A stretch of DNA of 64,000 bases from Candidatus Omnitrophota bacterium. Its GTDB lineage: Bacteria; Omnitrophota; Gorgyraeia; Gygaellales; Profunditerraquicolaceae. Position numbers and translations under genes: made by a program. Positions 9,712 to 32,793 of the stretch are shown here, piece by piece. The stretch lies in assembly GCA_016208765.1 (NCBI GenBank), contig JACQXK010000071.1:22429-86428 (forward strand), given 5' to 3'. The notes under the pieces are model-generated. The model did not search any database. It was not told where the DNA came from and saw only the letters and a program-made list of their open reading frames with translations. How positions within the stretch are numbered: the stretch's first letter is position 1; the number at the start of each line of letters is the position of its first letter.

Positions 9712-9981
9712 TCCCCCTTAGCTCAGTCGGTAGAGCGAGTGGCTGTCAAATTGGCAGCTTCCGTGGGAAACCACGGTTGAAACTGCAGGAGAATTGCTGG
9801 AAGTCCTTACGGGATAATCAGCAGCCGAGCCCGCCGTTAAATTTTCGGCGAGGAAGGTTCAGAGACTATGCACCTGCTGCCTAAAGCGCAAGCTACGGTA
9901 AAGATATAGTCCACTTCCGAAAGTAATTTCGGGTTAAGTGTAACCACCAGGTCCGAGGTTCGAGTCCTCGAGGGGGAGCCA
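9712..9981 (+). tRNA. tRNA-Asn(GUU) gene interrupted by a group I intron in the anticodon loop (exons 9712-9746 and 9941-9981, CCA encoded)
   Basis: Exons fold into a cloverleaf: acceptor tccccct/aggggga, D-arm gctc-agtcggta-gagc, anticodon arm agtgg-ctGTTaa-ccacc (G34U35 from the 5' exon, U36 from the 3' exon), variable loop aggtc, T-arm cgagg-ttcgagt-cctcg, discriminator G + CCA. Confidence 0.8.
9747..9940 (+). ncRNA. group I self-splicing intron (194 nt, cyanobacterial tRNA-Leu-intron-like core)
   Basis: Exact R element GTTCAGAGACTA (9858-9869) and S element AAGATATAGTCC (9901-9912); P-like AATTGCTGGAAG and Q-like AATCAGCAGCC; P1 gctgt|c pairs with IGS ggcagc giving U·G at the 5' splice site; intron ends in G (9940). 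Confidence 0.8.
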
Positions 9982-15336: not shown

Positions 15337-15717
15337 TCACCTTATTTTAATTTCCACCTCAGGATTATTTTTAATAGTATTATGCACAGGGCAATTCTTT
15401 ACAAATTCATGCAGGGCCTTTAACCTACGCTCATCAAGCACTACGCCATTTAAGTCCACCTGAATATTAATCTTCCTGAAACAAACCGGCGCTTCTTTGC
15501 TTAAATCTGCCTCTACGCTGATAATAAACTTACCAAGATTAAGCTTTGCTCCCTCGGCGTATTTACGCACATAAACCCCGATACAAGTCCCTAAACTTGC
15601 AAGAAACGCATCAGGAGGCGTTACGCCTTTTCCGTTTACATCTACAACAAATTCATAATCTTTTGATTTCACATTAAATAAATAATCACTATTGCTGGTT
15701 ATGTCTACCTGGTACAT
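15337..15717 (-). CDS. OsmC/Ohr-family peroxiredoxin-like protein
   Basis: 126 aa; conserved Cys pair regions (LGTCIGVY … KNCPVHNTI). Confidence 0.75.
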   Translation of the reverse strand: MYQVDITSNSDYLFNVKSKDYEFVVDVNGKGVTPPDAFLASLGTCIGVYVRKYAEGAKLNLGKFIISVEADLSKEAPVCFRKINIQVDLNGVVLDERRLKALHEFVKNCPVHNTIKNNPEVEIKIR

Positions 15718-18588: not shown

Positions 18589-21500
18589 TTAAACTCCGAC
18601 CTCAATTTTAGTTAAATCATCAAGATAAATCAAAATTCCCTTTACTTCTGACTTAGGATAAATTTCCTTGATAATGCCGACATACTCTTTTACCTGTTTC
18701 TGATAGGTATCATCCGCAACTTTTGCGCTCTTATAATCAATAATGACCACCTCATCTTTTTTTACGATCAGCCGGTCTATTCTTTTTGTCTGGCCTTGCC
18801 GGGAAACAATCTCTTTTTCCTGATAAACTTCTGCATCTTTAAGGTAAAAATATTCCGAAAAGGCTTTATCTTTCAATAAACTACGTGCAGTTTTTTCGCA
18901 AGCGGAAAAATCAGTAAAATGAGGGAATCTTTTCCTTGCCTGTTTGAAAGCATTATTAATCACCAAGTCCTCATCCTGATTATGAAGATTCCCGATATTT
19001 GACAACACAAAATGCAAGACATCCCCTTTTAATATCTTCTCTCTTTGCACAAGGACAGTTTCATCAATAAACTCATCATGCAGAAAATGTATCCAGTCCT
19101 TATAAGCGCAAACCGGTATTTCAAAATTAGACAGATCTTTAAGCTTGCCTTTTTTGATAGAACTTAACTTTTCTCCTATCTCAAAATCGTTTTGCTCAAA
19201 GATCAAACTTGCAAAATTCAGTTTATTCCCTATCCGGGGAGAAACATAAATATATAACTCATCACGAGAGCGGGTAAGAGCCACATAAACACTGTTTAAT
19301 TCATCAATAAAAGACTTTAGGTATTCTTTTCTTATAATTTCCCTGAGGCCATCAGAAAAATCCCCGAATCTCTGTTTAACATAAAGCAGTTTTAGCTCGC
19401 CGTCATCAGAATCCACTATATCCGAATCAAGCTTAATATCCATTTCAAGAAAAGGTATTACCACCGCAGAAAACTCAAGGCCCTTTGATTTATGGATTGT
19501 CATCACCCTTACTGATTCTTCACTGGTGACATTAACAAACAAGTCTTCGTCTCTGGCATTATCAAAAAACCCAAGAAAATCAGAAACACCCGGATTTTCC
19601 TCCTCCTGTTCCTTGATTAATTCCAGAAAACGCATAAAAAACCCCTGATAAGAGGGAAAATTACCAAGAATTGAAAACTTACCGTAAATAGTAACCACAA
19701 ATTCATAAAGAGGGACAAACCCCGCTTTGCGAAAGAAATCTTTAAAAAGGTTATCCCAGGCTTCAGGAAATTCCTTCTGAAATTTACGGTAAAGATAACT
19801 CTTATCTTCTGCGTCATGATTGAGCTCAAAGATAAAGTCTCGGATTTTATCCTGCGATATTCCTGAAGCACGGCAAAAAATATCCCCCATAATAAAAGAG
19901 GCAAACGAAAGATCGTCAATCGGAGAATTAAGAAACTTTAAAAAAGACACCAGCTCTTTGATGTAAGAATTCTCGCGGATATTAAGCGTCTTTTCAGATT
20001 CAACTGGGATATTTTTCTCCAGAAGCCAGGACGTTACTAATTGCACATCATCATTGGTGCGAGTTAAAATGCCGATATCTTTAGCAGGAAATCTTTCTCT
20101 TAAATCCTGGATCTGGAAAAGCAGCTTCTCTTTAAGCGCGCCATTTCTCTCGTCTTCATTCTTATAATTAAGAAATTCAGACTTAATGTAGCCGCCGGAT
20201 TTATGAATAACAACCTCTTGTTTAGCGCCCTTAAAAATACGCATTATTTCTTCTGCACAAGATTCGGATAATTCTTTTTTAATTTCTTCTTTACTTAAAA
20301 AACGCGATAAATTCTCCTCTGAAAACACTGCATTGTTAAATTCAACAATATTTCCTGCACTGCGGAAGTTTTTTTGCAAAACATCGCTAATTATTAGATA
20401 CCCTTTAAACTGCTCTTTTACAGTATCAATTAAAGAGACCTCTCCTCCTCTAAACCGGTAAATAGCCTGTTTCTTGTCACCGACATAAAAAAGCGATCCT
20501 GCTCCGGCAAGCGCCTCATCAACCATCGTCTTCAGATTCTCCCATTGCAACAGGCTCGTATCCTGAAATTCATCCAGCAAGAAATGCCTGAAGCGCGTGG
20601 CAAGGCGAAGATAAAGCTCAGGAAGTTCCAGCGATTTCTCATCAAATAAAATACGCGCCTTTTTATTTAATTCCTCCAGGAATAAAACATCGTCCTTAGA
20701 AGACTTTATCTTTAAATCATCAAGCACGCGGTTAAAGATATCAATATAATAATTAAATTTAAACAAAGCCTCCAATTCACAAAGCTGTTTTAATCCTGTT
20801 CTTATCCGGTTCCAAAGCAATTCAATTTCCTCAGAAAGGCTATATCCTTTATTCAAAGGAAATGACTCCCGGTTAAAATAATTAGACAGCTTTGTGATAT
20901 CAAATTTTTCTTTGTCTTCATTTGGAAAATCCGACAGGTAACCAGCAAACCTCTTATCTGCGCCTTCCGGAACATTTTGGCTAAGTCTTACAATTAATTC
21001 AATTACCTCGTTTCTTCGCATGATAAAATCTTTGATTTCAATGTTGCTGCGGATAAATTTACCGTGGTATTTATTGCTGCGGGAATATAAGCCGGCAATA
21101 ATAGTAGCAATGTCTTTCTTGGGAAACCAGCCTTCTTTATTTTCAATATAAAGATATTGTTTCAAAAACCCCCGGAATAATTCCAAGGCATCTTTATCAG
21201 AACCTGCTTTATCAATCAATTTATCAAGGCTGTACTCCAGATATTCCTTATACTCGGTTTGCGTCTTAAAGCCGGCGGATAAATCAAGTTTAAAGGCGCA
21301 TCCGGATAATATGGCATTAATAAAACTATCAATAGTCTGAACCTGAAAAAACTGATAGTTAGACAAGAGTGTATCCATGATCCGGAAAGCTTTTTTGCAC
21401 GCGGCATCCTCGGGCACGCCCAGGAATTCAATTACTTCATTTTTCTCTTCAAGGCTTTTAAATTTATCAAGGGCGATTTTTTTTAAGAAATCAAGGATCC

Positions 21501-21699
21501 TCTCCTTCATTTCAAGGGCGGCTTTATTGGTAAAGGTAATGGCAAGGATTGTCTCAAGGGGGATTTCCTGCGCAGCTAAAGAAGGATTAATTAAAAGCTT
21601 GATATACCTTTTAGCTAAGGCATACGTCTTTCCGCTTCCTGCAGATGCCTCGGTGACATAAATACAAGGGAGAGTTTCTTTTGATGCTTTTTGAACCAT
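18589..21699 (-). CDS. addA: AddA/RexA-like UvrD-family helicase with C-terminal RecB-type nuclease
   Basis: Walker A ASAGSGKTYALAKRY, motif Ia ITFTNKAALEMKERI, C-terminal nuclease motifs (GDVLHFVLS … IIDYKSAK). Confidence 0.8.
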   Translation of the reverse strand: MVQKASKETLPCIYVTEASAGSGKTYALAKRYIKLLINPSLAAQEIPLETILAITFTNKAALEMKERILDFLKKIALDKFKSLEEKNEVIEFLGVPEDAACKKAFRIMDTLLSNYQFFQVQTIDSFINAILSGCAFKLDLSAGFKTQTEYKEYLEYSLDKLIDKAGSDKDALELFRGFLKQYLYIENKEGWFPKKDIATIIAGLYSRSNKYHGKFIRSNIEIKDFIMRRNEVIELIVRLSQNVPEGADKRFAGYLSDFPNEDKEKFDITKLSNYFNRESFPLNKGYSLSEEIELLWNRIRTGLKQLCELEALFKFNYYIDIFNRVLDDLKIKSSKDDVLFLEELNKKARILFDEKSLELPELYLRLATRFRHFLLDEFQDTSLLQWENLKTMVDEALAGAGSLFYVGDKKQAIYRFRGGEVSLIDTVKEQFKGYLIISDVLQKNFRSAGNIVEFNNAVFSEENLSRFLSKEEIKKELSESCAEEIMRIFKGAKQEVVIHKSGGYIKSEFLNYKNEDERNGALKEKLLFQIQDLRERFPAKDIGILTRTNDDVQLVTSWLLEKNIPVESEKTLNIRENSYIKELVSFLKFLNSPIDDLSFASFIMGDIFCRASGISQDKIRDFIFELNHDAEDKSYLYRKFQKEFPEAWDNLFKDFFRKAGFVPLYEFVVTIYGKFSILGNFPSYQGFFMRFLELIKEQEEENPGVSDFLGFFDNARDEDLFVNVTSEESVRVMTIHKSKGLEFSAVVIPFLEMDIKLDSDIVDSDDGELKLLYVKQRFGDFSDGLREIIRKEYLKSFIDELNSVYVALTRSRDELYIYVSPRIGNKLNFASLIFEQNDFEIGEKLSSIKKGKLKDLSNFEIPVCAYKDWIHFLHDEFIDETVLVQREKILKGDVLHFVLSNIGNLHNQDEDLVINNAFKQARKRFPHFTDFSACEKTARSLLKDKAFSEYFYLKDAEVYQEKEIVSRQGQTKRIDRLIVKKDEVVIIDYKSAKVADDTYQKQVKEYVGIIKEIYPKSEVKGILIYLDDLTKIEVGV

Positions 21700-21916
21700 G
21701 ATAGAAAACCTATAAAATTACAAACAATCTATCTAAACTAATTAGATGTCCCGCTAAAAACAATAAAATAAATTGTTACAACGATTACGATTAACGCCGC
21801 CACAATATGATAAAAATATTTATGCTTAAGGATCTTGTCTAACATATACACGCTTCCTTTCTGCTTTAAACAACGGCATAAACCAAGGCCAAAGATTAAA
21901 CAATCGCTGAACTGTG

Positions 21917-23128
21917 TTATAAATACACAATATCTTCCGCATGATACAACGAAAGAAACAAAAGCATATAATCGCGCAGGTGCCGCGTAATCAAAAAGTT
22001 ATTTCTTATGTGCTCTCTGCCATTTTCTCCCAGTTTCTTTGCATATTCAGGGCTAGTTAGAAGCTGCTTGATTGCAAAGCTTGCCCCTTCAACAGAATGA
22101 CAAAGCAATCCTGAATATTTATGTTTTATCTGTAACGGTATTCCTCCAACATTTGAAGCCACAACCGGCTTTGCCTTCCATAAAGCTTCTGCCACCGTCA
22201 AGCCAAAACCTTCCTTAAGAGACTTTTGCACAACCACATCTGAGGCCCTTTGCAACGCATTCACCGCTATATCATCATGAGGCAATAAAAGAATATGAAT
22301 ATCCGGATCATTATTTGCACTTTCTTTAACCTCAGACAACACTTTAAACCCCTCAGGGTCATCTTCTGCAGTTCCGCCTGCCAATATTAATTGACAGTTA
22401 ATATATCTTTTTACCTGCTTATACGCTTCAACCACCCCCACAGGATCCTTTAAACGGTCAAAGCGCGATATCTGGGTAATAATCGGCTTGTCCTTTTTGA
22501 TATTATTCTTTCGCAAAACAGAATCTATCATTTCCTGCGGCAATTCCTTGTTCTTATCGCTTAAAGGGTCAATGGAGGGAGGGATCAAAAACTGCCTGAT
22601 TGGCAGCTTCCTTGAAAAACTTGGAGCAGAAAATACCGCGGAATCATATTTAATTATAAAATCCAAAAGAAAATCCCAGACTTTTTCATTGGGATTAGAA
22701 ACATCAATATGGCACCGCCAGAGCCATTTGTTATTGCTTCTTTTCTTCACCAATGCTATTGGCTGCGGGTCATGGATAAAAACTATGTCCCCATAGGTAT
22801 CAAGGTTTTTAATATTTTCTTCACTTGTCTCTAAAAATATATCAAAATCGTTTTTAGTAACCTCACCGGAACGGCCATGCAGAACATTATGAAATTTCTT
22901 TGTAACATCAAAAAAACTCTCACCGCCTTTTATTACATCCCATTTTGTATCTACGCCCAGGTCCTTTAATAGAGGAACCATACGGTTCAATATTTCAGCA
23001 ACACCCCCTCCCATGGGAGTAGAATTTATATGTTGAATAACCTTGCCTTTTAATCTCTCTCCCAGAAGCCTTAAATCATCAATAACAGACTGGCCGACTA
23101 ACGGGATATAATCTTCTATATTTACCAT
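21917..23128 (-). CDS. treT: GT4 glycosyltransferase, TreT-like trehalose glycosyltransferring synthase
   Basis: Strong resemblance (recalled from memory) to archaeal TreT blocks: INSTPMGGGVAEIL…WLWRCHID…PPSIDPL…KPIITQISRFD…HDDPEG…QRASDVVVQKSLKEGFGLTVAEALWKAKPVV. Confidence 0.7.
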   Translation of the reverse strand: MVNIEDYIPLVGQSVIDDLRLLGERLKGKVIQHINSTPMGGGVAEILNRMVPLLKDLGVDTKWDVIKGGESFFDVTKKFHNVLHGRSGEVTKNDFDIFLETSEENIKNLDTYGDIVFIHDPQPIALVKKRSNNKWLWRCHIDVSNPNEKVWDFLLDFIIKYDSAVFSAPSFSRKLPIRQFLIPPSIDPLSDKNKELPQEMIDSVLRKNNIKKDKPIITQISRFDRLKDPVGVVEAYKQVKRYINCQLILAGGTAEDDPEGFKVLSEVKESANNDPDIHILLLPHDDIAVNALQRASDVVVQKSLKEGFGLTVAEALWKAKPVVASNVGGIPLQIKHKYSGLLCHSVEGASFAIKQLLTSPEYAKKLGENGREHIRNNFLITRHLRDYMLLFLSLYHAEDIVYL

Positions 23129-23800
23129 CTATTCTGATATCCTCTCTTCAATTATTTCTATAATAGTTTCCCTTAAATCTTCTAATGTGCGCGTGTAAGG
23201 GTCAAAGTTGGAGATATTATCCGCCAGTTCCTTATCATGCAAGGAACTTCCTATCCACAATGAAAAGTCATTCGTTGGTTTCTCAAGCCTTAGGCGCGCT
23301 TCAAAGAAATGAAAATAAATTGAATCCATGGTTATTTTCTTAAGCACATTCACGAACTCACTTAAGTCATAAGCAACATACGATGTCGGCAAGACAAAAC
23401 TAACTGATTTAATAAAATAGAATTCTTCTCCTAAGCGGGCAAACTTGAGCTTTGCAAAAGCGCTTTCATCAAGATATTTTTCAATGGTTTGAGCAATTTT
23501 CTCACGTAAACTGCGTATCGTAGAAAACTGCATAGTATCAATACTCGCCAGCTTTTCCCCAAGTTCATCTTCTCCGAGCACGTCAGTAACCCAATAAGCA
23601 AAATCATTTGGCGGCTCAGGGGAAAGAAATTGATGCTGCTGCAGGAACCTGTGGGTATGATGATAAATACATGAACCGGGAACTTCTTTGATAAGCGCCA
23701 AAAACTGCCCCAAAGTGCTGGCCCTTAGCCCGGTCAACTCAGACAAGTGCAGCCTTGTGCAAAATCTAAACGGTTCGCTTGCTCTCTTAATAGTTGGCAT
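23129..23800 (-). CDS. conserved hypothetical protein embedded in trehalose cluster
   Basis: 223 aa soluble ORF abutting treT start and 7 nt from otsB stop; no recognisable motif. Confidence 0.4.
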   Translation of the reverse strand: MPTIKRASEPFRFCTRLHLSELTGLRASTLGQFLALIKEVPGSCIYHHTHRFLQQHQFLSPEPPNDFAYWVTDVLGEDELGEKLASIDTMQFSTIRSLREKIAQTIEKYLDESAFAKLKFARLGEEFYFIKSVSFVLPTSYVAYDLSEFVNVLKKITMDSIYFHFFEARLRLEKPTNDFSLWIGSSLHDKELADNISNFDPYTRTLEDLRETIIEIIEERISE

Positions 23801-23806
23801 ACTGCG

Positions 23807-24601
23807 TTACCCCTGTTGCAGTAAAATTTTCTTAAGCAGAATCGGAACTTCCCTGCTATTTAAAAGATAATAATCGGCAAAAGAGCGTTTCTTCCTGCCA
23901 ATTGCTATCGTGATGCCCTTATTTTTCAGCGCCCGGAACGCGTCTTCGTCAGTAAGGTCATCCCCTATATAAACAGGAACAACCGGTTTTCCTTTTAAAC
24001 TAAATACTTGCCTGGCCAAAAGCCATAAAACAACTTTTCCTTTATCCCAATCTACATTCGGCCTGATTTCTAAAACCTTTTTACCCGGGCTGACCTTTAT
24101 CTGCCCCTTTACATTATAAGTTATAGTTGCTTCATGAAAAATAGTTTTTATTTTTGAAACGAGTTCTTTATGAATCATCCTAAAATGCAGGCTCAATGAC
24201 AAGCCTTTGTCTTCTATCAAAACTCCCTTAAATTTAGAGAGCCTTTCTTCTAAATCACTTTTTATTTTTAATAGGAGCTTCCGATATTGCCCGGCAACCG
24301 AAAAAATGTATTTAATCTTCGGGCCCTCAATTTCTAAACCGTGATTTCCTGCGTAAATTATATTTTTGATCCCGACTCTTTTTTTTATATCCTTGAGGCT
24401 TCTTCCACTTATAACAGCTATTTTAAAATCTTTCTTTAGGGCAAGCCTGTCCAACAATTCTTTTGTCTTTTTAGCAAGCCTTGCCTTTGACGGAAGGGCA
24501 ACTATTTCAGCTAACGTACCATCAAAATCCAAAAATAAAAATATCGGCACGGACTTTATCTTTTTCAGCAACAAGCTATGTTTACTAAACACATACTCCA
24601 T
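23807..24601 (-). CDS. otsB: trehalose-6-phosphate phosphatase (HAD superfamily)
   Basis: HAD motif I FLDFDGTLA, T6PP-like cap; probable start MEYVFSK (24601) just after otsA stop. Confidence 0.8.
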   Translation of the reverse strand: MEYVFSKHSLLLKKIKSVPIFLFLDFDGTLAEIVALPSKARLAKKTKELLDRLALKKDFKIAVISGRSLKDIKKRVGIKNIIYAGNHGLEIEGPKIKYIFSVAGQYRKLLLKIKSDLEERLSKFKGVLIEDKGLSLSLHFRMIHKELVSKIKTIFHEATITYNVKGQIKVSPGKKVLEIRPNVDWDKGKVVLWLLARQVFSLKGKPVVPVYIGDDLTDEDAFRALKNKGITIAIGRKKRSFADYYLLNSREVPILLKKILLQQG

Positions 24602-24606
24602 TAACC

Positions 24607-26847
24607 CTACCCTGCTTCTTTCTTTAATGCAGACAGCTCTGTTATGATCTTCCCCGCCCAACGGTAGACATTATTTTCCTTAACGATATTTCTCATGTTC
24701 TCCATCCGCTTTCTTTTTTCTTCAACCGGCATTTCAATGGCGAATTTTATCGCATCTGAAAATTCTTCAATAGAATACGGGTTTATTTGTATTGCATCCG
24801 TTAACTCCCGAGATGCCCCTGTAAAACGGCTTAATATCAGAGTGCCGCTTAAATCGTTCTTTGATGAAACATATTCCTTTGCAACCAGGTTCATCCCGTC
24901 GTGCAAAGAGCTCACAATACACAGGTCAGCCAAGGAATAATAAGGTACGATTTCCTCCGGGGAAAAGTGGCGTTTTAAATAAACGATCGGGTTCCAGACC
25001 CCGTCAGAATACTTCCAGTTTTTCTTTTCCACTAATTCATCAATCTCTGCAATAAGTTCATGATAACGCTTAATATGCGTCCTGCTGGGAGCTGCCAATT
25101 GGACAAAAACAAATTTATTTCTATACTGGGGGTACTTCTCAAGAAACCTGTCTATTGCCATTATCCTCTCAATAATACCCTTGGTATAATCAATTCTATC
25201 AACTCCCAAAGCAACTACTTTATCTTCCAAATTGTATTCTTTGCGGATTTTTTTTATCTGTTCAGGATCAATCTTAAGAATATTCCCTCCGATATAGCCA
25301 TCAACGCTGATTGGGAAAGCCCTGACAAACGTCTCTTTATTTGCCCTGACAATACTGAATTTTTCAGTATCAACACGGCACTCAACCAGGCGATTGGCAG
25401 TATCAAGAAAATTATTGCAATGAAACTGAAGATGAAAACCGATTAAATCACAAGCCAGCATTCCTTCAAGGATCTCATGCTGGTAAGGGCAAATCGCAAA
25501 AACCTCAGGGTTAGGCCAGGGAATATGCCAAAATATGGCAACTATTGCATCAGGCCTTTTTTCCTTAATCATTTTTGCAAGAAGAGTAAAATGGTAATCC
25601 TGGATAAAAACAAAAGGGTTTTTTGCCGGCAGTTCTTCCAGAATGCTATCCGCAAATTTCTGGTTTACTTTTTTATACATCTGCCAGTCTGTTTCCCTGA
25701 AAATTGGGCGCGTATGAGTAACGTGGCAAAGAGGCCATAAGCCCTCGTTTGAAAAGCCGTAGTAATACCCATCCTCTTCTTCTTTTGTAAGCCATACTCT
25801 TTTAAGGATATAGCGGTCTTCACCCGGAGGCACACCCAATTTGTTCTTTGAATTTACAAATTGCCTGTCGGCATTTGCGCTCCCGTGGGCAACCCAAGTA
25901 CCGCCGCATGCCCGTAAAATCGGGTCTATTGCCGTAACTACTCCGCTTGCAGGGCGCACGCATTTTGGAACACCTGTATTTTCATCTATTATATGAAGAT
26001 ACGGCTCTCTGTTAGAAACAACAAAAAACGCGTTCTCCCCCAATTTTGCATGGATTAAATCACGGAGCTTCGCCTCAGTCCAAACCTCTTCTTTTTGTAT
26101 TCTAACATGCGCCTCATCTGAAACTGCTTTACGGGCCACCCTAAGCCCCAAAGCGACCTGCTCAACTTCACTAATAAGCTTCCCAAATTCTCCTTCTTCC
26201 TTAAACGGCCTCAGCTTATCCGTCTCGCCCCGCTGAAAATGGCTGAACCATTGCGTTAACCTGCGTACCGGTAAAATAAATATCTGACGCTGAATCAAAA
26301 AAGCAATTATCGTAATTAACAAAATTAAAATAATTAACGTTACACTGATCTTCTTCCATAACTCGGTTAAAGTATTAAACATATAGGAGGTATCATAAAG
26401 GACCTCCACTAACCCTAAAACATTGTTATCATCATCCAAGACTGGCTGCACATAACTATAAACAGTATATTCCCTGAAACTTTCAAGCTCTCCGCGGGGA
26501 TTCTTATTTATAAGCATGTCCTTAATATACGGCTTGTCTTTCTGGCTCCAGTCAGAGAAACGCTCTGTGATTGCCAAAATCTGCCCGTCTTTGTCATAGA
26601 TTGCACAACCCTGGAGCCTTTCTTTTCTTTGAAAGATCTCCACCAAACGATTGGCTGATTTTAGATCATTATTAACAAGGATGTATCGCGCAGACAACTC
26701 AAGGCTCTCATTAACTGTCTTGGCCTTTCTTTTTAGATCATCCATTAATTTATCCTGCGTAAAACGCACCTGGACAATACCGGATACCGTAAAAACTACC
26801 GAAATAATAATTAAAATCGGTAAAATAAATAAAAGGACTCTTTTCAT
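24607..26847 (-). CDS. otsA: trehalose-6-phosphate synthase (GT20, OtsA) fused to N-terminal TM sensor domain + HAMP-like linker
   Basis: C-terminal ~470 aa carry OtsA blocks (YYYGFSNEGLWPLCH, IQDYHF, GT-B fold); N-terminal ~280 aa = TM1, ~150-aa extracytoplasmic Cache-like domain, TM2, amphipathic HAMP-like segment. Confidence 0.8.
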   Translation of the reverse strand: MKRVLLFILPILIIISVVFTVSGIVQVRFTQDKLMDDLKRKAKTVNESLELSARYILVNNDLKSANRLVEIFQRKERLQGCAIYDKDGQILAITERFSDWSQKDKPYIKDMLINKNPRGELESFREYTVYSYVQPVLDDDNNVLGLVEVLYDTSYMFNTLTELWKKISVTLIILILLITIIAFLIQRQIFILPVRRLTQWFSHFQRGETDKLRPFKEEGEFGKLISEVEQVALGLRVARKAVSDEAHVRIQKEEVWTEAKLRDLIHAKLGENAFFVVSNREPYLHIIDENTGVPKCVRPASGVVTAIDPILRACGGTWVAHGSANADRQFVNSKNKLGVPPGEDRYILKRVWLTKEEEDGYYYGFSNEGLWPLCHVTHTRPIFRETDWQMYKKVNQKFADSILEELPAKNPFVFIQDYHFTLLAKMIKEKRPDAIVAIFWHIPWPNPEVFAICPYQHEILEGMLACDLIGFHLQFHCNNFLDTANRLVECRVDTEKFSIVRANKETFVRAFPISVDGYIGGNILKIDPEQIKKIRKEYNLEDKVVALGVDRIDYTKGIIERIMAIDRFLEKYPQYRNKFVFVQLAAPSRTHIKRYHELIAEIDELVEKKNWKYSDGVWNPIVYLKRHFSPEEIVPYYSLADLCIVSSLHDGMNLVAKEYVSSKNDLSGTLILSRFTGASRELTDAIQINPYSIEEFSDAIKFAIEMPVEEKRKRMENMRNIVKENNVYRWAGKIITELSALKKEAG

Positions 26848-26892
26848 TCTCTTTGCCTCCCTTATGCCATCTTAAAACCAAAAACCGCCAAC

Positions 26893-26930
26893 TAAATATT
26901 TAGATTGGCGGCCCGACCATCAATGTTCCC
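26893..26930 (-). terminator. rho-independent terminator (minus strand)
   Basis: Hairpin ccgccaa…ttggcgg followed by T-run on minus strand, downstream of gene 26999-27682. Confidence 0.5.
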
Positions 26931-26998
26931 TCTAGAAATGTCTTTTCATTTCCAGACCACTTATTATGCATAATTATCTTATTTCATTTTAGCGCATT

Positions 26999-27682
26999 TT
27001 ACTGATATTGCAATACCTTAATCGTCTCACCTTTTAAAATCTTCGGCAAGGGCTGCGCGTCAATGCGCAGGCCGCCATCATGCTCAATTTTAATGGTATA
27101 AAGCATTCCGGGAATAAACTTTGTTCCCGGAGCCTCTATTTGGGCGTTTTTAATTCCAAGCTTACTGGCTTCTTTAGGTTCCAAAGCATATTGCCAAAAC
27201 TTCTCCCAAAACTTATTTTCAAACCTACTTACAGGCCCTTCAATTTTATATCCAGAAGGAATACTGTTTGCTTTATTAATTTCAAACACCTCTACACTAT
27301 GATCAGAAAGCACAAATGCCTTCATAAAAATATACGCGCTTTTTCCCCTTAAAGAATCTCCCCTTTTTACATACAGATCGTCAAACCTGATTACCATTGA
27401 TTGAAACTGAATAATATTTCCTGAAAAGGTAAAATATTTGGCAGGCAGGGGATTTAATTTTGTATCATATTCCAGAAATTTAATAGTGGTATATGTTTTT
27501 TGTAACTGAGGATCAAACCTTACGTCAGTAACCAAAACCTCGGCAGCCCTTGAATCAGCGCTTAAACGCTCAATAATCTTTAACAAAACCTGTTTTTGGC
27601 GGTAAGAATTAAGAAAATACAGCACAACCAAACAACAGATAAAAGCAGTAATCAATAATTTTATATTAATTTTTGCATTCAT
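26999..27682 (-). CDS. hypothetical N-terminally membrane-anchored protein
   Basis: Probable start MNAKINIKLLITAFICCLVV (ATG 27682); ORF-track N-terminal extension to 27847 runs through a repeat/tRNA-flank and is rejected. Confidence 0.5.
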   Translation of the reverse strand: MNAKINIKLLITAFICCLVVLYFLNSYRQKQVLLKIIERLSADSRAAEVLVTDVRFDPQLQKTYTTIKFLEYDTKLNPLPAKYFTFSGNIIQFQSMVIRFDDLYVKRGDSLRGKSAYIFMKAFVLSDHSVEVFEINKANSIPSGYKIEGPVSRFENKFWEKFWQYALEPKEASKLGIKNAQIEAPGTKFIPGMLYTIKIEHDGGLRIDAQPLPKILKGETIKVLQYQ

Positions 27683-27758
27683 TATAAAATAATTAGGGAC
27701 GTTTCTAATTTCTTGTCTTGTGCCAAGAATAAATAGAAACGCCCCCTCTCTAAAGATA

Positions 27759-27924
27759 CATTGTTTTGCTGCCGTAGTTTTGCTGGATTTATCTAGCGAA
27801 GTTGAAGCAGGCACTTCGCTCGCTACAGCCCTTGTCACATAAGGCACTGGCTAAGTAAAAGCTTTTCCACGAAGGCACCAAAACACATTGTTTTGGTGCC
27901 GTAGTTTTGCTGGATTTATCCAGC
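27759..27924. repeat. 39-nt imperfect direct repeat pair (27759-27797 and 27886-27924) plus two palindromic hairpins downstream of tRNA-Ser
   Basis: cattgttttgCtgccgtagttttgctggatttatcTagc vs cattgttttgGtgccgtagttttgctggatttatcCagc; hairpins ggcaccaaaaca…tgttttggtgcc and gtagttttgctgga…tccagcaaaactac. Confidence 0.6.
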
Positions 27925-27931
27925 AAAACTA

Positions 27932-28020
27932 CGGAGAGGCTGGGATTTGAACCCAGGGACCCAGTTTCCCAGGTCAACTCATTAGCAGTGAGTTGCTTTC
28001 GACCACTCAGCCACCTCTCC
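27932..28020 (-). tRNA. tRNA-Ser(GCU)
   Basis: Minus-strand GGAGAGGTGGCTGAGTGGTCGAAAGCAACTCACTGCTAATGAGTTG + long variable arm + GGTTCAAATCC T-arm; anticodon loop ctGCTaa; no encoded CCA. Confidence 0.85.
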
Positions 28021-28133
28021 GAAAAATTTTTAATGTAAAAATTTTTTGGCACTTGAGAAACGGGTTTCATTAATGAAACCCGCGACGAAAGTGCCTAAAA
28101 TAATTTATGTCAAAATTAATTCTTCTTTCCCGC

Positions 28134-28625
28134 TCAACTATTTAATAACGGGCGGGATCCCGCACCATGAGAAAGACGCTTACGGGAAAAGAATTCCTTT
28201 AGCAAAGAGCTGCACTCATCTTTTAACACACCGCCTGAAACCTTTACACGGTGGTTAAGTTTTTTGTGATTTGCAATATTTACCACTGACCCGCAGGCGC
28301 CGGTCTTGGGGTCTTTTGCGCCATAAATAATATCTTTTACCCTTGCTAACACAAGAGCGCCAGCGCACATGCTACATGGTTCAATAGTAACATACAAAGA
28401 TGCCCCATTCAACCACTTGCAATCCAAATAATTAGCTGCAGAAGTCAAGGCCAGCATCTCAGCGTGTGCAGTCGGATCTTTAAGCCGCTCTACCTGATTA
28501 TGCCCGCGGGCAATAATCCTCCCTTCATGCACAACCACAGCCCCTACCGGCACTTCATCTTCTTCAAATGCCTTTTGCGCCTCTTTAAGCGCTTCGGACA
28601 TATATAATTGATGTTTCTTTAACAC
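28134..28625 (-). CDS. tadA: tRNA-specific adenosine deaminase
   Basis: CDA-fold zinc motifs HAEMLAL and PCSMCAGAL. Confidence 0.9.
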   Translation of the reverse strand: MLKKHQLYMSEALKEAQKAFEEDEVPVGAVVVHEGRIIARGHNQVERLKDPTAHAEMLALTSAANYLDCKWLNGASLYVTIEPCSMCAGALVLARVKDIIYGAKDPKTGACGSVVNIANHKKLNHRVKVSGGVLKDECSSLLKEFFSRKRLSHGAGSRPLLNS

Positions 28626-29319: not shown

Positions 29320-29811
29320 TTAGGCACTAAAAACATCCTTGATCAATTTGGCAAGTAGTTGCGCAGATTTTTTTATTTCCTGCGATGGTTTTAGGCCAAA
29401 GGCAACGGTCTTAGGCTGAATACACAAAAGAATAACCTTGCAACCAAGGCAAGCCGTAAGATAATCTGCCATCACTTTTAGCGACATGCGGTGTGTGCCA
29501 AGATTTGTTCCGTGGATATTATCCAAATCCACAACCTCAGCATAGCCTGCTTTCTTACCAAGGTCGGCGGAATCAATAATTAAAACGTGTGTAGGGCAAA
29601 ACTGTTTAATTTCTCCGGTGAGATTTTCCGGGCTGGTGGAGCCAAAAATACTTTTAAAGCAAGGATTGTTTTTAAAAAGACGGGATAAATTTCCTGTTAC
29701 AATTAACCCTGCTGCATCATCTGCGCGCAAGTCTGAACCAACTCCCAAGAAAACTGTTTTCTTCGCGCTACGAAGATGTTTTTTTAGCGTCGCTTTTAGT
29801 TTCTGCACCAA
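29320..29811 (-). CDS. hycI: [NiFe] hydrogenase maturation endopeptidase (HycI/HyaD family)
   Basis: VFLGVGSDLRADDAAGL … HVLIIDSAD pattern of hydrogenase maturation proteases; overlaps upstream Fe-S subunit gene by ~44 nt. Confidence 0.75.
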   Translation of the reverse strand: MVQKLKATLKKHLRSAKKTVFLGVGSDLRADDAAGLIVTGNLSRLFKNNPCFKSIFGSTSPENLTGEIKQFCPTHVLIIDSADLGKKAGYAEVVDLDNIHGTNLGTHRMSLKVMADYLTACLGCKVILLCIQPKTVAFGLKPSQEIKKSAQLLAKLIKDVFSA

Positions 29812-30151
29812 AAACCACCTTTAACTTCTGCGGATCAAGCTGAGCCAATTCCACTTCTTTTGTATATTCCAGCGCTTTCTTTAAACAGGAATCCACGCAC
29901 TGCGCGCAATAAATACATTTACCCAAATCTATCGCTGCTTCAAACTGCTTCTCACCTACCTGATTTATAGTAATGGCATTTGTCGGACAGTCTTTCATGC
30001 AAAGCTTGCACCCGATGCATTTTTCAGGATGGAATTTAAGCTTGCCGCGATAATGCTCAGGAAGCTCTAATTTTTCTTTCGGGTACATTATTGTAACCGG
30101 CTTTTTCATCCCTGTGCGCAAAACCTCTCTTAACATCTTTCCCGGCCTCAT
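29768..30151 (-). CDS. 2x[4Fe-4S] ferredoxin-like subunit (NuoI/HycF/MbhN-like)
   Basis: CIGCKLCMKDCP and CIYCAQCVDSC motifs. Confidence 0.8.
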   Translation of the reverse strand: MRPGKMLREVLRTGMKKPVTIMYPKEKLELPEHYRGKLKFHPEKCIGCKLCMKDCPTNAITINQVGEKQFEAAIDLGKCIYCAQCVDSCLKKALEYTKEVELAQLDPQKLKVVFGAETKSDAKKTSS

Positions 30152-31089
30152 TTAATCATCACTCCTTTAACCGCCAAGTTTAATAAAAGCTGCATCATGG
30201 CAAGCGGCACCAGGTATTTCCAGCAAAAATTAATCATCTGGTCAATCCTCAGGCGAGCTACAATTGTGCGCGCCAAAGAAATCAAGAAAATAATAGATAG
30301 CAGTTTAACCAAGAATATTACAAAATCCAGAAAAGAATTATATGTCAAAGCAAACGGCAGAAACACCGCCGACAACAATGCAGCGCCCACAATCATTTCA
30401 ATATTTAATGTCAGCTTTAAAAACGCCAAAAGTTTACCGCTATATTCGGTAAAACCTCCGGCGACAATCTCGGTTTCTGCCTCCGGGATATCAAAAGGCG
30501 TCTTCTCTAATTTTCCCAATAGGGCAATCAACGAAATTACAAATCCTCCTAAATTCATCAACCACAACCAAGGGTGTATTACGTAAAATTCCGCGATCTT
30601 TGTCAGGCTCCATGTATTGGCAAGAAGCGCCGAGGAAAGGATCCCCATAAAAAGCGGAACCTCATAAGCAAATAACTGCGTAAGCGAGCGCACTGTCCCG
30701 ATACGCGCATACAAAGATGTTGAATACCAGCCGCCTATAAAAAATGACAGTGTGGGAATTGTTAAAAGATACAACACAACTAAAATATCACCGTTAAATG
30801 AATACAATGCCTCCGGCGTCCAGAGCGGAATATAGAAAAATGCAGTTACCACTGAAGCTGCTGCAAACAAAGGCGCCATTTTAAACATTGTAGGATTAGC
30901 CTCTGAAGGAATAATCTCCTGCTTGCCCAATAATTTTATAAAATCTGCCACCGGCTGAAACCACGGAGGGCCGACCCTGTTCTGCAAACGTGCATAGATC
31001 TTACGATCAATAAATTCTCCCAAAAAAGAAAGCACCGCTAGAAATAAAAATCCCGGGAAAATCATCATTGAAAATATCGCGCTAAACAT
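30148..31089 (-). CDS. NuoH/HycD/MbhM-like integral membrane subunit
   Basis: 313 aa, 8 TM, complex-I subunit-1 family pattern. Confidence 0.8.
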   Translation of the reverse strand: MFSAIFSMMIFPGFLFLAVLSFLGEFIDRKIYARLQNRVGPPWFQPVADFIKLLGKQEIIPSEANPTMFKMAPLFAAASVVTAFFYIPLWTPEALYSFNGDILVVLYLLTIPTLSFFIGGWYSTSLYARIGTVRSLTQLFAYEVPLFMGILSSALLANTWSLTKIAEFYVIHPWLWLMNLGGFVISLIALLGKLEKTPFDIPEAETEIVAGGFTEYSGKLLAFLKLTLNIEMIVGAALLSAVFLPFALTYNSFLDFVIFLVKLLSIIFLISLARTIVARLRIDQMINFCWKYLVPLAMMQLLLNLAVKGVMIK

Positions 31090-32330
31090 TAATACTTACT
31101 CAACCTTTCTTGCAACTTCTTATTAAGCTTTCCAAAATCAACCCCACGCTTGCTGTGCCATTTAATGCTATAATCATGCAAAGCCTGCCAGGTCATTAAA
31201 TTCTCCTGCCCCCTGTTGTCCTGCTCTAAAGACACCAACCTGTCAGTGCAGGAAAAACACGGGTCAATTGCCGCGATCACAATCGGCATATCTGCCAAAA
31301 ATCTATCCTTTAACATATGCTTTACCGCCTGAACATTTGCCAATGTAGGCGCGCGCACTTTCACTCTTTCTGGTCTCTCTGTTCCGTTAGACTTAACATA
31401 ATGCACATCTTCTCCTCGCGGAGCCTCATAACGGCTAAGCGCCTCACCAACAGGGATCTTGCGAGGAGCCCTGACTGTAATTGGCCCATCAGGCAAATTC
31501 TTCAGGCACTGACGCACAATTTTATAAGCCTCCATCAATTCCTTGAGCCGCACTATTGTCCTTGCGTAAACATCAGCACCGGTATCTGTAATCACATCAA
31601 ATGAAATTTCTCCGTAAGAAGCATAAGGATCATCCTTACGCACATCCCTTTTTACTCCGGAGGCGCGCGCAGTCGGGCCAACCGCGTCAAAATGCAAAGC
31701 ATCATCATATGACAAAACGCCTACTCCCGACAAACGTTTAATAAGCGTAGTTTCTCCAAGCCCAAGTTCAATATAATATTTGGTCCTCTCTTCTAACAAA
31801 TCCATGGCCTTAAGTGTTTCCTGGATCTGAATAGAAGAAATATCTCGCCTGACTCCTCCGATGGTATTTATCCCATAATTAACCCGGTTTCCGGTAAGCT
31901 CTGCAAGAATATCCATAACAATTTCCCGGTCGCGCCAGGTATACATAAGTAAAGTATCAAATCCAATTTCATGCCCGGCAACTCCTAACCATAAAAGATG
32001 GCTGTGAATACGCTCAAGTTCAGCTACAAGCGTGCGAATATATAAAGCGCGCCTGGGAACAGCTAAACCCGCAATCTCTTCTACCGCCTGCACAAAACAA
32101 GTAGAGTGGGAATGCGAGCAAATCCCGCAGACTCGCTCAATCAAATACATATCCTGAATATATGTCCGCTCTTCGCAGGCTTTTTCAATACCACGATGGT
32201 TATATCCTAGCCTGATTTCCACACCTAAAATCTTCTCGCCACGCAGGGCCACGCTAAAACTTTCAGGCTCTTTTAATGCCGGATGCTGCGGCCCAATGGG
32301 TATTTTAAATTCTTCTGATGAATTATGCAT
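31089..32330 (-). CDS. group 4 [NiFe] hydrogenase large subunit (NuoD/MbhL/EchE-like)
   Basis: N-terminal RVCGICSHSH and C-terminal DPCFSCTDR Ni-Fe ligand motifs; probable start MHNSSEEF (ATG 32330), 4 nt after the NuoC-like stop. Confidence 0.8.
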   Translation of the reverse strand: MHNSSEEFKIPIGPQHPALKEPESFSVALRGEKILGVEIRLGYNHRGIEKACEERTYIQDMYLIERVCGICSHSHSTCFVQAVEEIAGLAVPRRALYIRTLVAELERIHSHLLWLGVAGHEIGFDTLLMYTWRDREIVMDILAELTGNRVNYGINTIGGVRRDISSIQIQETLKAMDLLEERTKYYIELGLGETTLIKRLSGVGVLSYDDALHFDAVGPTARASGVKRDVRKDDPYASYGEISFDVITDTGADVYARTIVRLKELMEAYKIVRQCLKNLPDGPITVRAPRKIPVGEALSRYEAPRGEDVHYVKSNGTERPERVKVRAPTLANVQAVKHMLKDRFLADMPIVIAAIDPCFSCTDRLVSLEQDNRGQENLMTWQALHDYSIKWHSKRGVDFGKLNKKLQERLSKY

Positions 32331-32793
32331 TTTCACCTGCTTTCTTATCAAGCATCTCCTGTTTCCAATCCTTACGTAAAGGAAATTGTCCAACCGGCCA
32401 GTCATCAGTTAATGGATAACGGTTCCCTTGAGGCAAACCTTCAACTTTAGCCCCAAATAAATCCACCAATTCTCTCTCATAAATCTCAGCTCCTGCAAAA
32501 TAAGGAATGATGCTTTTAATCACCGGATTTTCCTTAGGAACACTGACTTTTATATTTATCAGAATTCCGCCTTCTTTGGTCAAATGATAAATAAAACTTA
32601 AATTTTCCCCCTCATCCAGCCCTGTAATAGTGCATAAGTGCGTAAAATTAAAATGCTTCATTAAATAATCCAAGACATTTGTAAATTTATCAAGCCCCAC
32701 TCTCAGAAAGATCCTTCTTTCCCGCGGCTGGGTTATATTTCCTTCAAGAAAATTAAATTCTTTAACCAAATTCTGCATAATATTCTGTTCCAT
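32323..32793 (-). CDS. NuoC/MbhK-like 30-kDa-type subunit
   Basis: 156 aa with NuoC fold motifs (…GAEIYERELVDLFG…). Confidence 0.7.
   Translation of the reverse strand: MEQNIMQNLVKEFNFLEGNITQPRERRIFLRVGLDKFTNVLDYLMKHFNFTHLCTITGLDEGENLSFIYHLTKEGGILINIKVSVPKENPVIKSIIPYFAGAEIYERELVDLFGAKVEGLPQGNRYPLTDDWPVGQFPLRKDWKQEMLDKKAGENA

Follow-up and report, generated by a model that had tools for sequence, protein, structure and literature searches.

In bacteria, compatible-solute synthesis is known to be controlled mostly at transcription or through soluble effectors. A more direct arrangement is found in ProP, BetP and OpuA, where one membrane protein senses the stress and raises the compatible solute itself, without new gene expression. 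Here we describe a gene, called sensor-otsA below, in which a trehalose-6-phosphate (T6P) synthase of the OtsA type is joined in one chain to a membrane-bound sensor module. It lies in a 64,000-nucleotide (nt) stretch of DNA from a Candidatus Omnitrophota bacterium (contig JACQXK010000071.1 of assembly GCA_016208765.1, positions 22,429 to 86,428), referred to throughout as the window. ProP, BetP and OpuA take solutes up, and their sensing elements are cytoplasmic or face the lipids, whereas the sensor-otsA product would synthesise a solute under the influence of a Cache-HAMP module.

The closest described enzymes are the soluble OtsA proteins, such as those of Escherichia coli (PDB 1gz5 and 1uqu) and Mycobacterium thermoresistibile (5jij). 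They share with sensor-otsA the GT20 GT-B fold at about 29-35% identity, the donor, acceptor and catalytic residues listed below, and an adjacent otsB gene. However, soluble OtsA is cytosolic, whereas the sensor-otsA product carries a 273-residue N-terminal extension made of a transmembrane (TM) segment, a Cache domain, a second TM segment, a HAMP-like module and a linker, and its GT20 domain scores below equivalog level. Known T6P synthases have been described as controlled by effectors or through the expression of their genes (PMC6879718).

The N-terminal plan of TM1, single Cache/PDC domain, TM2 and HAMP is identical to that of WalK (YycG) and other Cache/HAMP histidine kinases. The output is different, being a GT-B glycosyltransferase instead of a DHp/CA kinase, with neither a phosphorelay nor a response regulator. 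Other receptors that combine a TM sensor, a HAMP domain and an enzyme in one chain are the YfiN/DgcN diguanylate cyclases, the SiaA PP2C phosphatases and the HAMP adenylate cyclases, and the N-termini of the NCBIfam DgcN/YfiN and SiaA models gave weak matches to our protein. The outputs of these receptor enzymes make or remove signalling molecules or phosphoryl groups, whereas sensor-otsA would produce a metabolite in bulk, from which a compatible solute is made. We know of no description of GT20 as the output of a HAMP receptor.

As a system, the closest analogue is the msc-gt-tpsp operon of Thermoproteus tenax (PMC3634074). Both loci combine T6P synthase and phosphatase (TPS/TPP) with a GT4 glycosyltransferase, and an MscS-type channel is present in loci related to ours. 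In T. tenax the GT4 protein activates the TPSP enzyme (PMC3634074). The T. tenax operon contains no membrane sensor and no riboswitch, whereas here TPS is fused to the sensor and TPP is encoded by a separate gene. The parts of our system (OtsA, sCache, HAMP and an nhaA-I riboswitch) are all of known kinds, and it is for a Cache-HAMP-GT20 receptor enzyme that the searchable literature gave no description.

Results

Architecture and topology of the sensor-otsA product

The gene is an open reading frame (ORF) of 746 codons on the minus strand at 24607..26847, with an ATG start codon and a GGGAGG ribosome-binding site 8 nt upstream. Its parts are as follows.

26776..26838, minus strand: TM1, residues 4-24 (hydropathy peak 2.96; model helix H2-59 is continuous with the first sensor helix)
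26353..26775, minus strand: extracytoplasmic single-Cache/PDC domain, residues 25-165 (model, Foldseek and family profile)
26287..26352, minus strand: TM2, residues 166-187 (hydropathy peak 3.24; lies inside one model helix, 154-205)
26128..26286, minus strand: HAMP-like module, residues 188-240, with AS1 containing P193, the connector starting from G207 and AS2 containing E227 (alignment and model)
26029..26127, minus strand: helical output linker, residues 241-273 (invariant A246, R249, W256, T257 and L261; fixed spacing)
24607..26028, minus strand: GT20 T6P synthase domain, residues 274-746 and stop codon (PF00982, PDB OtsA matches and model)

By predicted topology, the product is an N-in/C-in bitopic membrane protein. 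Only two hydrophobic segments, at about residues 4-24 and 166-187, exceeded 1.6 in a 19-residue Kyte-Doolittle scan, and basic residues flank TM1 on its N-terminal side (MKR) and TM2 on its C-terminal side. As GT20 enzymes need NDP-glucose and glucose-6-phosphate from the cytoplasm, both termini were placed inside and residues 25-165 outside. The full-length AlphaFold model of the monomer, with a predicted local distance difference test (pLDDT) score of 84.6, shows both TM helices running on into the helices of the sensor domain.

A first-pass annotation, made from the sequence alone, had proposed the order TM1, Cache-like domain, TM2, HAMP-like segment and GT20, and this order was borne out by Pfam, hydropathy, AlphaFold and Foldseek. 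The N-terminus is neither soluble nor devoid of a sensor fold, as it has two TM segments and a Cache fold in the model. The extracytoplasmic loop that had been put at about 150 residues is present, with a measured length of 141 residues.

Distribution of the fusion

More than 120 clusters of full-length homologues (743-746 residues, 76-96% identity) were found in independent assemblies. Their named members are almost all labelled as Candidatus Omnitrophota and are annotated simply as 'trehalose-6-phosphate synthase'. When the N-terminal 273 residues alone were searched against 1.84 billion representatives, 463 clusters (at 50% identity) were matched with E<=1e-3, and nearly all of the matches that were long enough run directly into GT20, including Acidobacteriota proteins that are only 22-30% identical over the N-terminus. 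A scan of one genome per GTDB species gave at least 387 loci with the N-terminal module.

Unless stated otherwise, the locus comparisons below refer to the best 80 of these at least 387 loci. They comprise 42 from Acidobacteriota, 17 from Omnitrophota, 9 from Elusimicrobia and 12 others, all from metagenome-assembled genomes (MAGs) whose labels may be wrong. The N-terminus and GT20 are contiguous and in a single frame in all 80.

A frameshift or assembly artefact joining a sensor gene to otsA, which the first-pass annotation had named among the findings that would refute its reading, was therefore rejected on the strength of the independent full-length homologues and the single frame of every locus, and as an explanation its probability is practically negligible. 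Sequence comparison thus indicates that the sensor-GT20 fusion is real, old and widespread across hundreds of uncultured bacterial species, and the survey of homologues that had been suggested shows the fusion itself to be conserved, in at least 387 species-level genomes. The impression that the fusion is uncharacterised also held, as full-text literature searches returned nothing on an OtsA or T6P synthase with a membrane sensor. A Cache-HAMP-GT20 receptor enzyme was not found in the searchable literature, where full-text queries for 'hamp' mostly returned 'hamper'.

The extracytoplasmic sensor domain

Pfam models for this domain matched at marginal scores. The sensor gave 21.6-24.2 bits with dCache_1 and 17-21.7 bits with sCache_3_2, both under the cut-off, and 23.2 bits with sCache_4 (cut-off 22.1) in a scan of the isolated domain only, the whole-protein scan being under the cut-off. 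Across the family, sCache_3_2 matched 6 of 19 members at E<=0.01.

The structural evidence was clearer. From an alignment of 112 sequences, AlphaFold2 modelled residues 22-168 with a pLDDT of 89.6 and a predicted template modelling score (pTM) of 0.81, and the model has a long N-terminal helix, a five-stranded PAS-like sheet with intervening helices and a C-terminal helix. The top Foldseek matches in the PDB were WalK/YycG (4ywz, with a TM-score of 0.76, 5is1 and 7dud), CitA (2j80 and 1p0z), DcuS (3by8) and KinD, with E-values down to 1e-7, TM-scores up to 0.81 and a probability of 1.00 for these top matches. By fold, the WalK extracellular domain is closest, followed by CitA and DcuS. The same relative was recovered without a structure, as a sequence profile from 19 diverse family N-termini picked out the extracellular domain of WalK (E=4e-6), and the NCBIfam WalK model aligns to residues 2-245 (E=2e-8).

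According to the model, then, the periplasmic part of the protein is a WalK-like single-Cache/PDC domain. The Cache-like sensor fold that had been suspected is present, whereas the double-Cache (dCache) option was rejected, the AlphaFold model and the Foldseek matches both showing one PAS-like module. Few periplasmic residues are conserved family-wide, namely F72, R75, E76, G80, Y84, G88, P135, G145, D152 and Y155. Duplicated sensors occur elsewhere: one variant of the fused enzyme (P0238, 913 residues) carries two tandem periplasmic copies ahead of TM2-HAMP-GT20, and a histidine kinase (P0316, 660 residues) has a duplicated sensor like that of P0238.

The TM-Cache-TM part is also found without GT20. 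Homologues are linked to GGDEF in P0233 and P0247 (about 32% identity over residues 3-207) and to HAMP-HisKA-HATPase in P0351 and P0316. As judged from these sequences, the sensor is a portable signalling module that also serves GGDEF and kinase outputs.

The HAMP-like module and the linker

Pfam HAMP gave 17 bits in the sensor-otsA protein and did not reach its cut-off of 25. Some homologues do reach this cut-off (of 19, two matched at E<=0.01, the best being 1.9e-6), and PF00672 was already assigned in the precomputed annotation of P0134, P0147, P0176 and P0414. In BLASTP, residues 2-260 align colinearly with the histidine kinase P0351, in which residues 186-237 are a Pfam HAMP domain with 49.6 bits. 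The family profile matched the HAMP domains of Af1503 and Tsr weakly, at the same position (E about 0.03-0.05).

Directly after TM2 there is a helix-connector-helix of about 50 residues with the AS1 proline and the connector-start glycine that are expected of a HAMP domain. P193 in AS1 was present in 78 of 78 relatives, G207 at the connector start in 75 of 80, and E227 in all 80. In the full-length model, one helix (154-205) leaves the Cache domain, crosses TM2 and continues as AS1, followed by a loop, a helix at 220-250, a break with W256 and T257, and a helix at 258-268; the first GT20 strand begins at residue 274.

Spacing and identity were determined in an alignment of the sensor-otsA protein with 79 related loci. 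The distance from W164 to P193 is 29 residues in 78/78, that from E227 to W256 is 29 residues in 79/80, and that from W256 to N279 is 23 residues in 80/80. The sole variable interval is the HAMP connector, with 33-39 residues between P193 and E227. None of the 80 differs at E227, A238, A246, R249, W256, T257 or L261. This constancy is seen although the distant group is only 22-31% identical to sensor-otsA over TM1, Cache, TM2, HAMP and linker (about 24% for the N-terminus), compared with 54% in GT20.

N279 and R280, at the far end of the last interval, belong to a VVSNREP motif that starts on the first GT20 strand. We take R280 to be the equivalent of E. coli OtsA Arg9, which binds the phosphate of the acceptor, glucose-6-phosphate. 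The fixed spacing and the invariant linker residues therefore point to a transmission path with rigid helical coupling. Such coupling, as in the linkers between HAMP and output in receptors, would explain the conservation of the linker, and a flexible tether would not.

The GT20 catalytic domain

Pfam Glyco_transf_20 (PF00982) covers residues 274-739 with 406.3 bits (E=2e-121; cut-off 32.5). The best sequence matches in the PDB are all T6P synthases, with M. thermoresistibile OtsA (5jij) at E=2e-83, and the modelled GT-B fold fits OtsA structures (Foldseek TM-score of 0.89 for 5l3k/1uqu, target-normalised, in a range of 0.87-0.89, with a root mean square deviation of 3.1-3.3). In an alignment with E. 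coli OtsA (NC_000913), R9, G22, Y76, W85, D130, H154, R262, K267, R300, D361 and E369 are all conserved. These are donor-binding, acceptor-binding or catalytic residues of OtsA, and from its sequence the domain looks catalytically complete.

The NCBIfam equivalog cut-offs were missed with full-length coverage, by TIGR02400 at 416.1 bits (cut-off 564.85) and by PRK14501 at 478.9 bits (cut-off 634), and the GgpS model matched the domain at 315 bits. Full coverage with sub-equivalog scores indicates a divergent subfamily of T6P synthases, which on these scores is nearest to the TPS half of the bifunctional TPSP enzymes (PRK14501).

An nhaA-I class riboswitch in the operon leader

The 151-nt gap before the otsA start codon contains an nhaA-I aptamer, 55 nt upstream of sensor-otsA, which the first-pass annotation did not report.

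26902..26959, minus strand: nhaA-I class (Li+-I/Na+-II type) riboswitch aptamer (Rfam RF03057)
26874..26913, minus strand: terminator-type expression platform, hairpin GCCGCCAAUCUAAAUAUUUAGUUGGCGG followed by a U-run

RF03057 matched over its full model (1-55), and its 39.8 bits exceed the gathering threshold of 37 (the E-value is 5e-6 when 1.6 kb are searched and 2e-4 for the whole window). The conserved core of the leader is GGGU / GAGG / GGUCGGGCCGCC. The 5' arm of the terminator, GCCGCCAAUC, doubles as the 3' arm of aptamer stem P2, and the minimum free energy fold of 26862-26962 (minus strand) consists of P1 and the terminator hairpin (-29.4 kcal/mol, z=-3.26).

This arrangement is shared with relatives. 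The aptamer/terminator overlap is common to 19 of 19 aligned leaders, each of which has an equivalent GAUGGCGG and U-run arm complementary to CCGCCAUC. When these 19 were folded together, RNAalifold recovered P1 and P2, of whose 14 pairs 8 show compensatory changes, and GG-U, AGG and the core of the P2 hairpin (G.CGGGCCGC) are invariant in the 19.

Of 26 related Omnitrophota/Elusimicrobia-type loci surveyed, 17 have an nhaA-I match that scores no lower than the gathering threshold and lies upstream of sensor-otsA in the same orientation. Six of these have it within about 170 nt of the start codon. Most of the others have one interposed gene, which encodes MscS (4 loci), a Na+/Ca2+ exchanger (1) or an unrecognised product (1), and in L002 and L003 the first gene after the riboswitch (OmpA/LysM, Band 7) lies further upstream of otsA. 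The interposed mscS genes, all in Omnitrophota loci, are at L008:2177-3271, L010:403-1470, L013:4939-6000 and L021:258-1331 (all plus strand), and the exchanger gene is at 5020-5949 of L061. A further nhaA-I-type leader was seen downstream of treT in L021 (Rfam match) and in L022 (motif search only), where it precedes a ClC chloride channel gene. When distant, mostly Acidobacteriota, loci were searched for nhaA-I, it was found in 0 of 12.

RNAs of the nhaA-I class have been validated as Li+ ON-switches (White et al. 2022, PMC9646797), and rare variants bearing a terminator as Na+ ON-switches, termed 'Na+-II' (PMC9646797). The genes following 944 nhaA-I representatives included otsA 16 times, mscS 3 times and a glycosyltransferase 5 times, and the authors suggested that the otsA-linked examples might be Na+ sensors for osmotic stress (PMC9646797). 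Our leader agrees with these descriptions in its score above the gathering threshold, the shared core, the covarying P1 and P2 and the otsA link that was already listed there, and its terminator platform is like that of the Na+-II variants. The terminator-type variants were reported in Deltaproteobacteria only, upstream of genes of unknown function (PMC9646797), whereas the 19 terminator examples here come from Omnitrophota/Elusimicrobia-type MAGs and stand ahead of otsA, mscS and ion-transport genes. By our own mapping, the discriminator 'position 54' is U in the sensor-otsA leader and in 18 of the 19 leaders, U being Li+-I-like and C being Na+-II.

The trehalose operon and its neighbours

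Sensor-otsA is the first gene of the operon and is followed by otsB, orfY/DUF5752 and treT.

23807..24601, minus strand: otsB, T6P phosphatase (Pfam Trehalose_PPase, E=2e-45; TIGR00685, 167.9 bits against a cut-off of 68)
23129..23800, minus strand: DUF5752/OrfY-like protein (Pfam DUF5752, E=5e-69; PDB 4cso, E=7e-22 over the full length)
21917..23128, minus strand: TreT-like GT4 glycosyltransferase of the trehalose glycosyltransferring synthase family (TreT_GT1, E=8e-55; Glycos_transf_1, E=6e-28)

The likely start of otsB is the ATG at 24601, 5 nt past the otsA stop codon, and in the longer ORF the alignment with homologues begins at residue 21. The title of PDB entry 4cso is 'ORFY protein, transcription factor'. 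NCBIfam TreT gave 372 bits with the GT4 protein, under its equivalog cut-off of 775.

The cluster of sensor-otsA, otsB, DUF5752 and treT recurs in Omnitrophota, Elusimicrobia and many Acidobacteriota. In related loci across phyla, the DUF5752 gene always stands ahead of treT and downstream of otsA/otsB, and several Acidobacteriota loci have no otsB between otsA and the DUF5752-treT pair. This pair may represent a second trehalose route, a regulator or a partner of OtsA.

No conserved accessory gene was found beside otsA among the 80 loci. An ORF upstream in the window (26999-27847, 282 codons) was rejected as part of the system, having no family match and no relatives beside otsA elsewhere. 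A consensus scan of 21500-28200 for promoters and terminators found 20 promoter-like sequences (16.4 expected) and 6 terminator-like ones (5.7 expected), and it missed the riboswitch terminator.

Other features of the window

At 27753-27927 and 27931-28021 (minus strand), there is a tRNA-Ser(gct) gene followed by two 48-nt direct repeats (90% identical, 127 nt apart), each with a hairpin-forming sequence. Because the 282-codon ORF at 26999-27847 reaches into the distal of the two repeats, it probably begins at an internal codon (MNAKINIK...). Further upstream, a hydrogenase cluster (29320-32405, minus strand) encodes a HycI-type protease, a 4Fe-4S protein, an NADH-dehydrogenase-subunit-1-like protein and a NiFe large subunit, and fits an anaerobic Omnitrophota chromosome. 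An OsmC-like gene (15337-15717, minus strand) lies about 6 kb downstream of the trehalose operon. At 9712-9981 (plus strand), a tRNA gene is split by a group I intron (RF00028, 9737-9933, 80.8 bits); with introns allowed, ARAGORN assigned tRNA-Thr(tgt) and an intron of 194 nt, although this tRNA identity is not secure.

Discussion

We consider it probable that sensor-otsA encodes a receptor-type T6P synthase under two layers of control, a cation riboswitch and gating by the Cache-HAMP module. In the first layer, a rise of cytoplasmic Na+ or Li+ during salt stress would stabilise aptamer stem P2, and a stable P2 would block formation of the overlapping terminator, so that transcription of the operon is switched on. 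In the second layer, the enzyme would dimerise through a four-helix bundle of its TM and HAMP segments. The Cache domain would read an extracytoplasmic cue, most likely one tied to the osmotic, ionic or envelope state, and the resulting helical rearrangement would be relayed from TM2 by way of HAMP and then the linker to the N-lobe of the GT-B fold, arriving at its first beta-strand; VVSNREP, with R280, lies on this strand and just after it. This could tune T6P synthesis post-translationally, via acceptor binding or lobe closure. OtsB would then free trehalose from T6P, TreT and OrfY could provide a second trehalose route or act as partners, and the MscS channel encoded in the same operon of related genomes could serve as a release valve.

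Direct gating of compatible-solute synthesis by an extracellular signal, which the first-pass annotation had read from the domain order, is what we infer for the second layer. It is made more plausible by the invariant helical spacing between TM2 and the catalytic domain, by the presence of the same sensor module on GGDEF and histidine-kinase outputs, and by the osmotic and ionic stress context of the operon. Extending this to the family, we would suggest tentatively, and with slightly less than even confidence, that it is a family of transmembrane receptor-glycosyltransferases in which Cache-HAMP allosterically gates GT-B, and that the Omnitrophota and Elusimicrobia members stack a cation riboswitch on top, combining signals from inside and outside the cell, along with an MscS valve.

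The module could also serve as an anchor or scaffold only, holding OtsA at the inner membrane near MscS, TreT/OtsB or membranes that need protection, with no signal and with constitutive activity once the riboswitch permits expression. The sensor has no known ligand or signal, the riboswitch alone could supply the regulation, and trehalose synthase complexes with partner-dependent activation exist, as in T. tenax TPSP and its GT (PMC3634074). However, an anchor needs neither a folded 141-residue Cache domain nor a HAMP-type module, and it does not need exact spacing that is kept across phyla at about 24% identity. The same module serves GGDEF and kinase outputs, and the Acidobacteriota-type branch keeps the sensor without the riboswitch, so we regard a pure anchor as unlikely. 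Another possibility, which we rate as improbable, is that signalling is real but the Cache domain, instead of receiving a small molecule, binds accessory proteins or envelope components, as WalK does with YycH/YycI, or that the TM/HAMP region itself responds to temperature or to the tension or thickness of the membrane. By structure and by sequence, the extracellular domain of WalK is indeed the best match, the integrative WalK-YycH model 9a5d being among the matches, and the few residues conserved in the periplasmic part form a pattern that looks structural and not pocket-like. On the other hand, the 80 loci hold neither a conserved accessory gene nor a relative of the window's upstream ORF, and the ligand-binding CitA and DcuS domains match almost as well as WalK.

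A change of function in the GT20 domain, either to another product such as glucosylglycerol phosphate or to a regulatory pseudo-enzyme that binds sugar nucleotides, would account for the missed TIGR02400 and PRK14501 cut-offs and for the GgpS score. It is very improbable given that the OtsA donor and acceptor residues are conserved, the best PDB matches are T6P synthases and otsB follows within 5 nt.

Several observations weigh against a receptor enzyme with two layers of control. In the sensor-otsA protein, all Cache Pfam models except sCache_4, and Pfam HAMP, are under their gathering thresholds. The WalK extracellular domain works via partner proteins and, to our knowledge, has no small-molecule ligand, so a ligand-gated model for sensor-otsA is not guaranteed. 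We also know of no precedent for a HAMP domain controlling a GT-B glycosyltransferase, and the contact between the linker and the N-lobe is putative. That activity depends on a signal, that the enzyme forms dimers and which way the regulation runs are all inferred. The two-layer scheme does not extend to the whole family, since the riboswitch is missing from the Acidobacteriota-type branch, and the leader itself gives mixed indications of Li+ or Na+ specificity, its terminator appearing Na+-II-like and its U discriminator Li+-I-like.

If it is true, a receptor-type OtsA would be to the synthesis of compatible solutes what the osmosensing transporters are to their uptake. The outputs of HAMP/Cache receptors would then extend from signalling enzymes to a bulk metabolic glycosyltransferase, which would be a new class of HAMP output, and this raises the structural question of how the rearrangement of a four-helix bundle controls GT-B closure or acceptor binding. 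The riboswitch, which extends the terminator-type nhaA-I variants beyond Deltaproteobacteria, provides a concrete physiological handle in the form of salt or alkali-cation stress. The family is widespread in abundant and poorly understood bacteria, namely the Acidobacteriota of soil and peat, the Omnitrophota of groundwater and the Elusimicrobia. As its members are annotated just as T6P synthases, genome-based inferences about the stress physiology of these bacteria would miss this putative regulatory layer.

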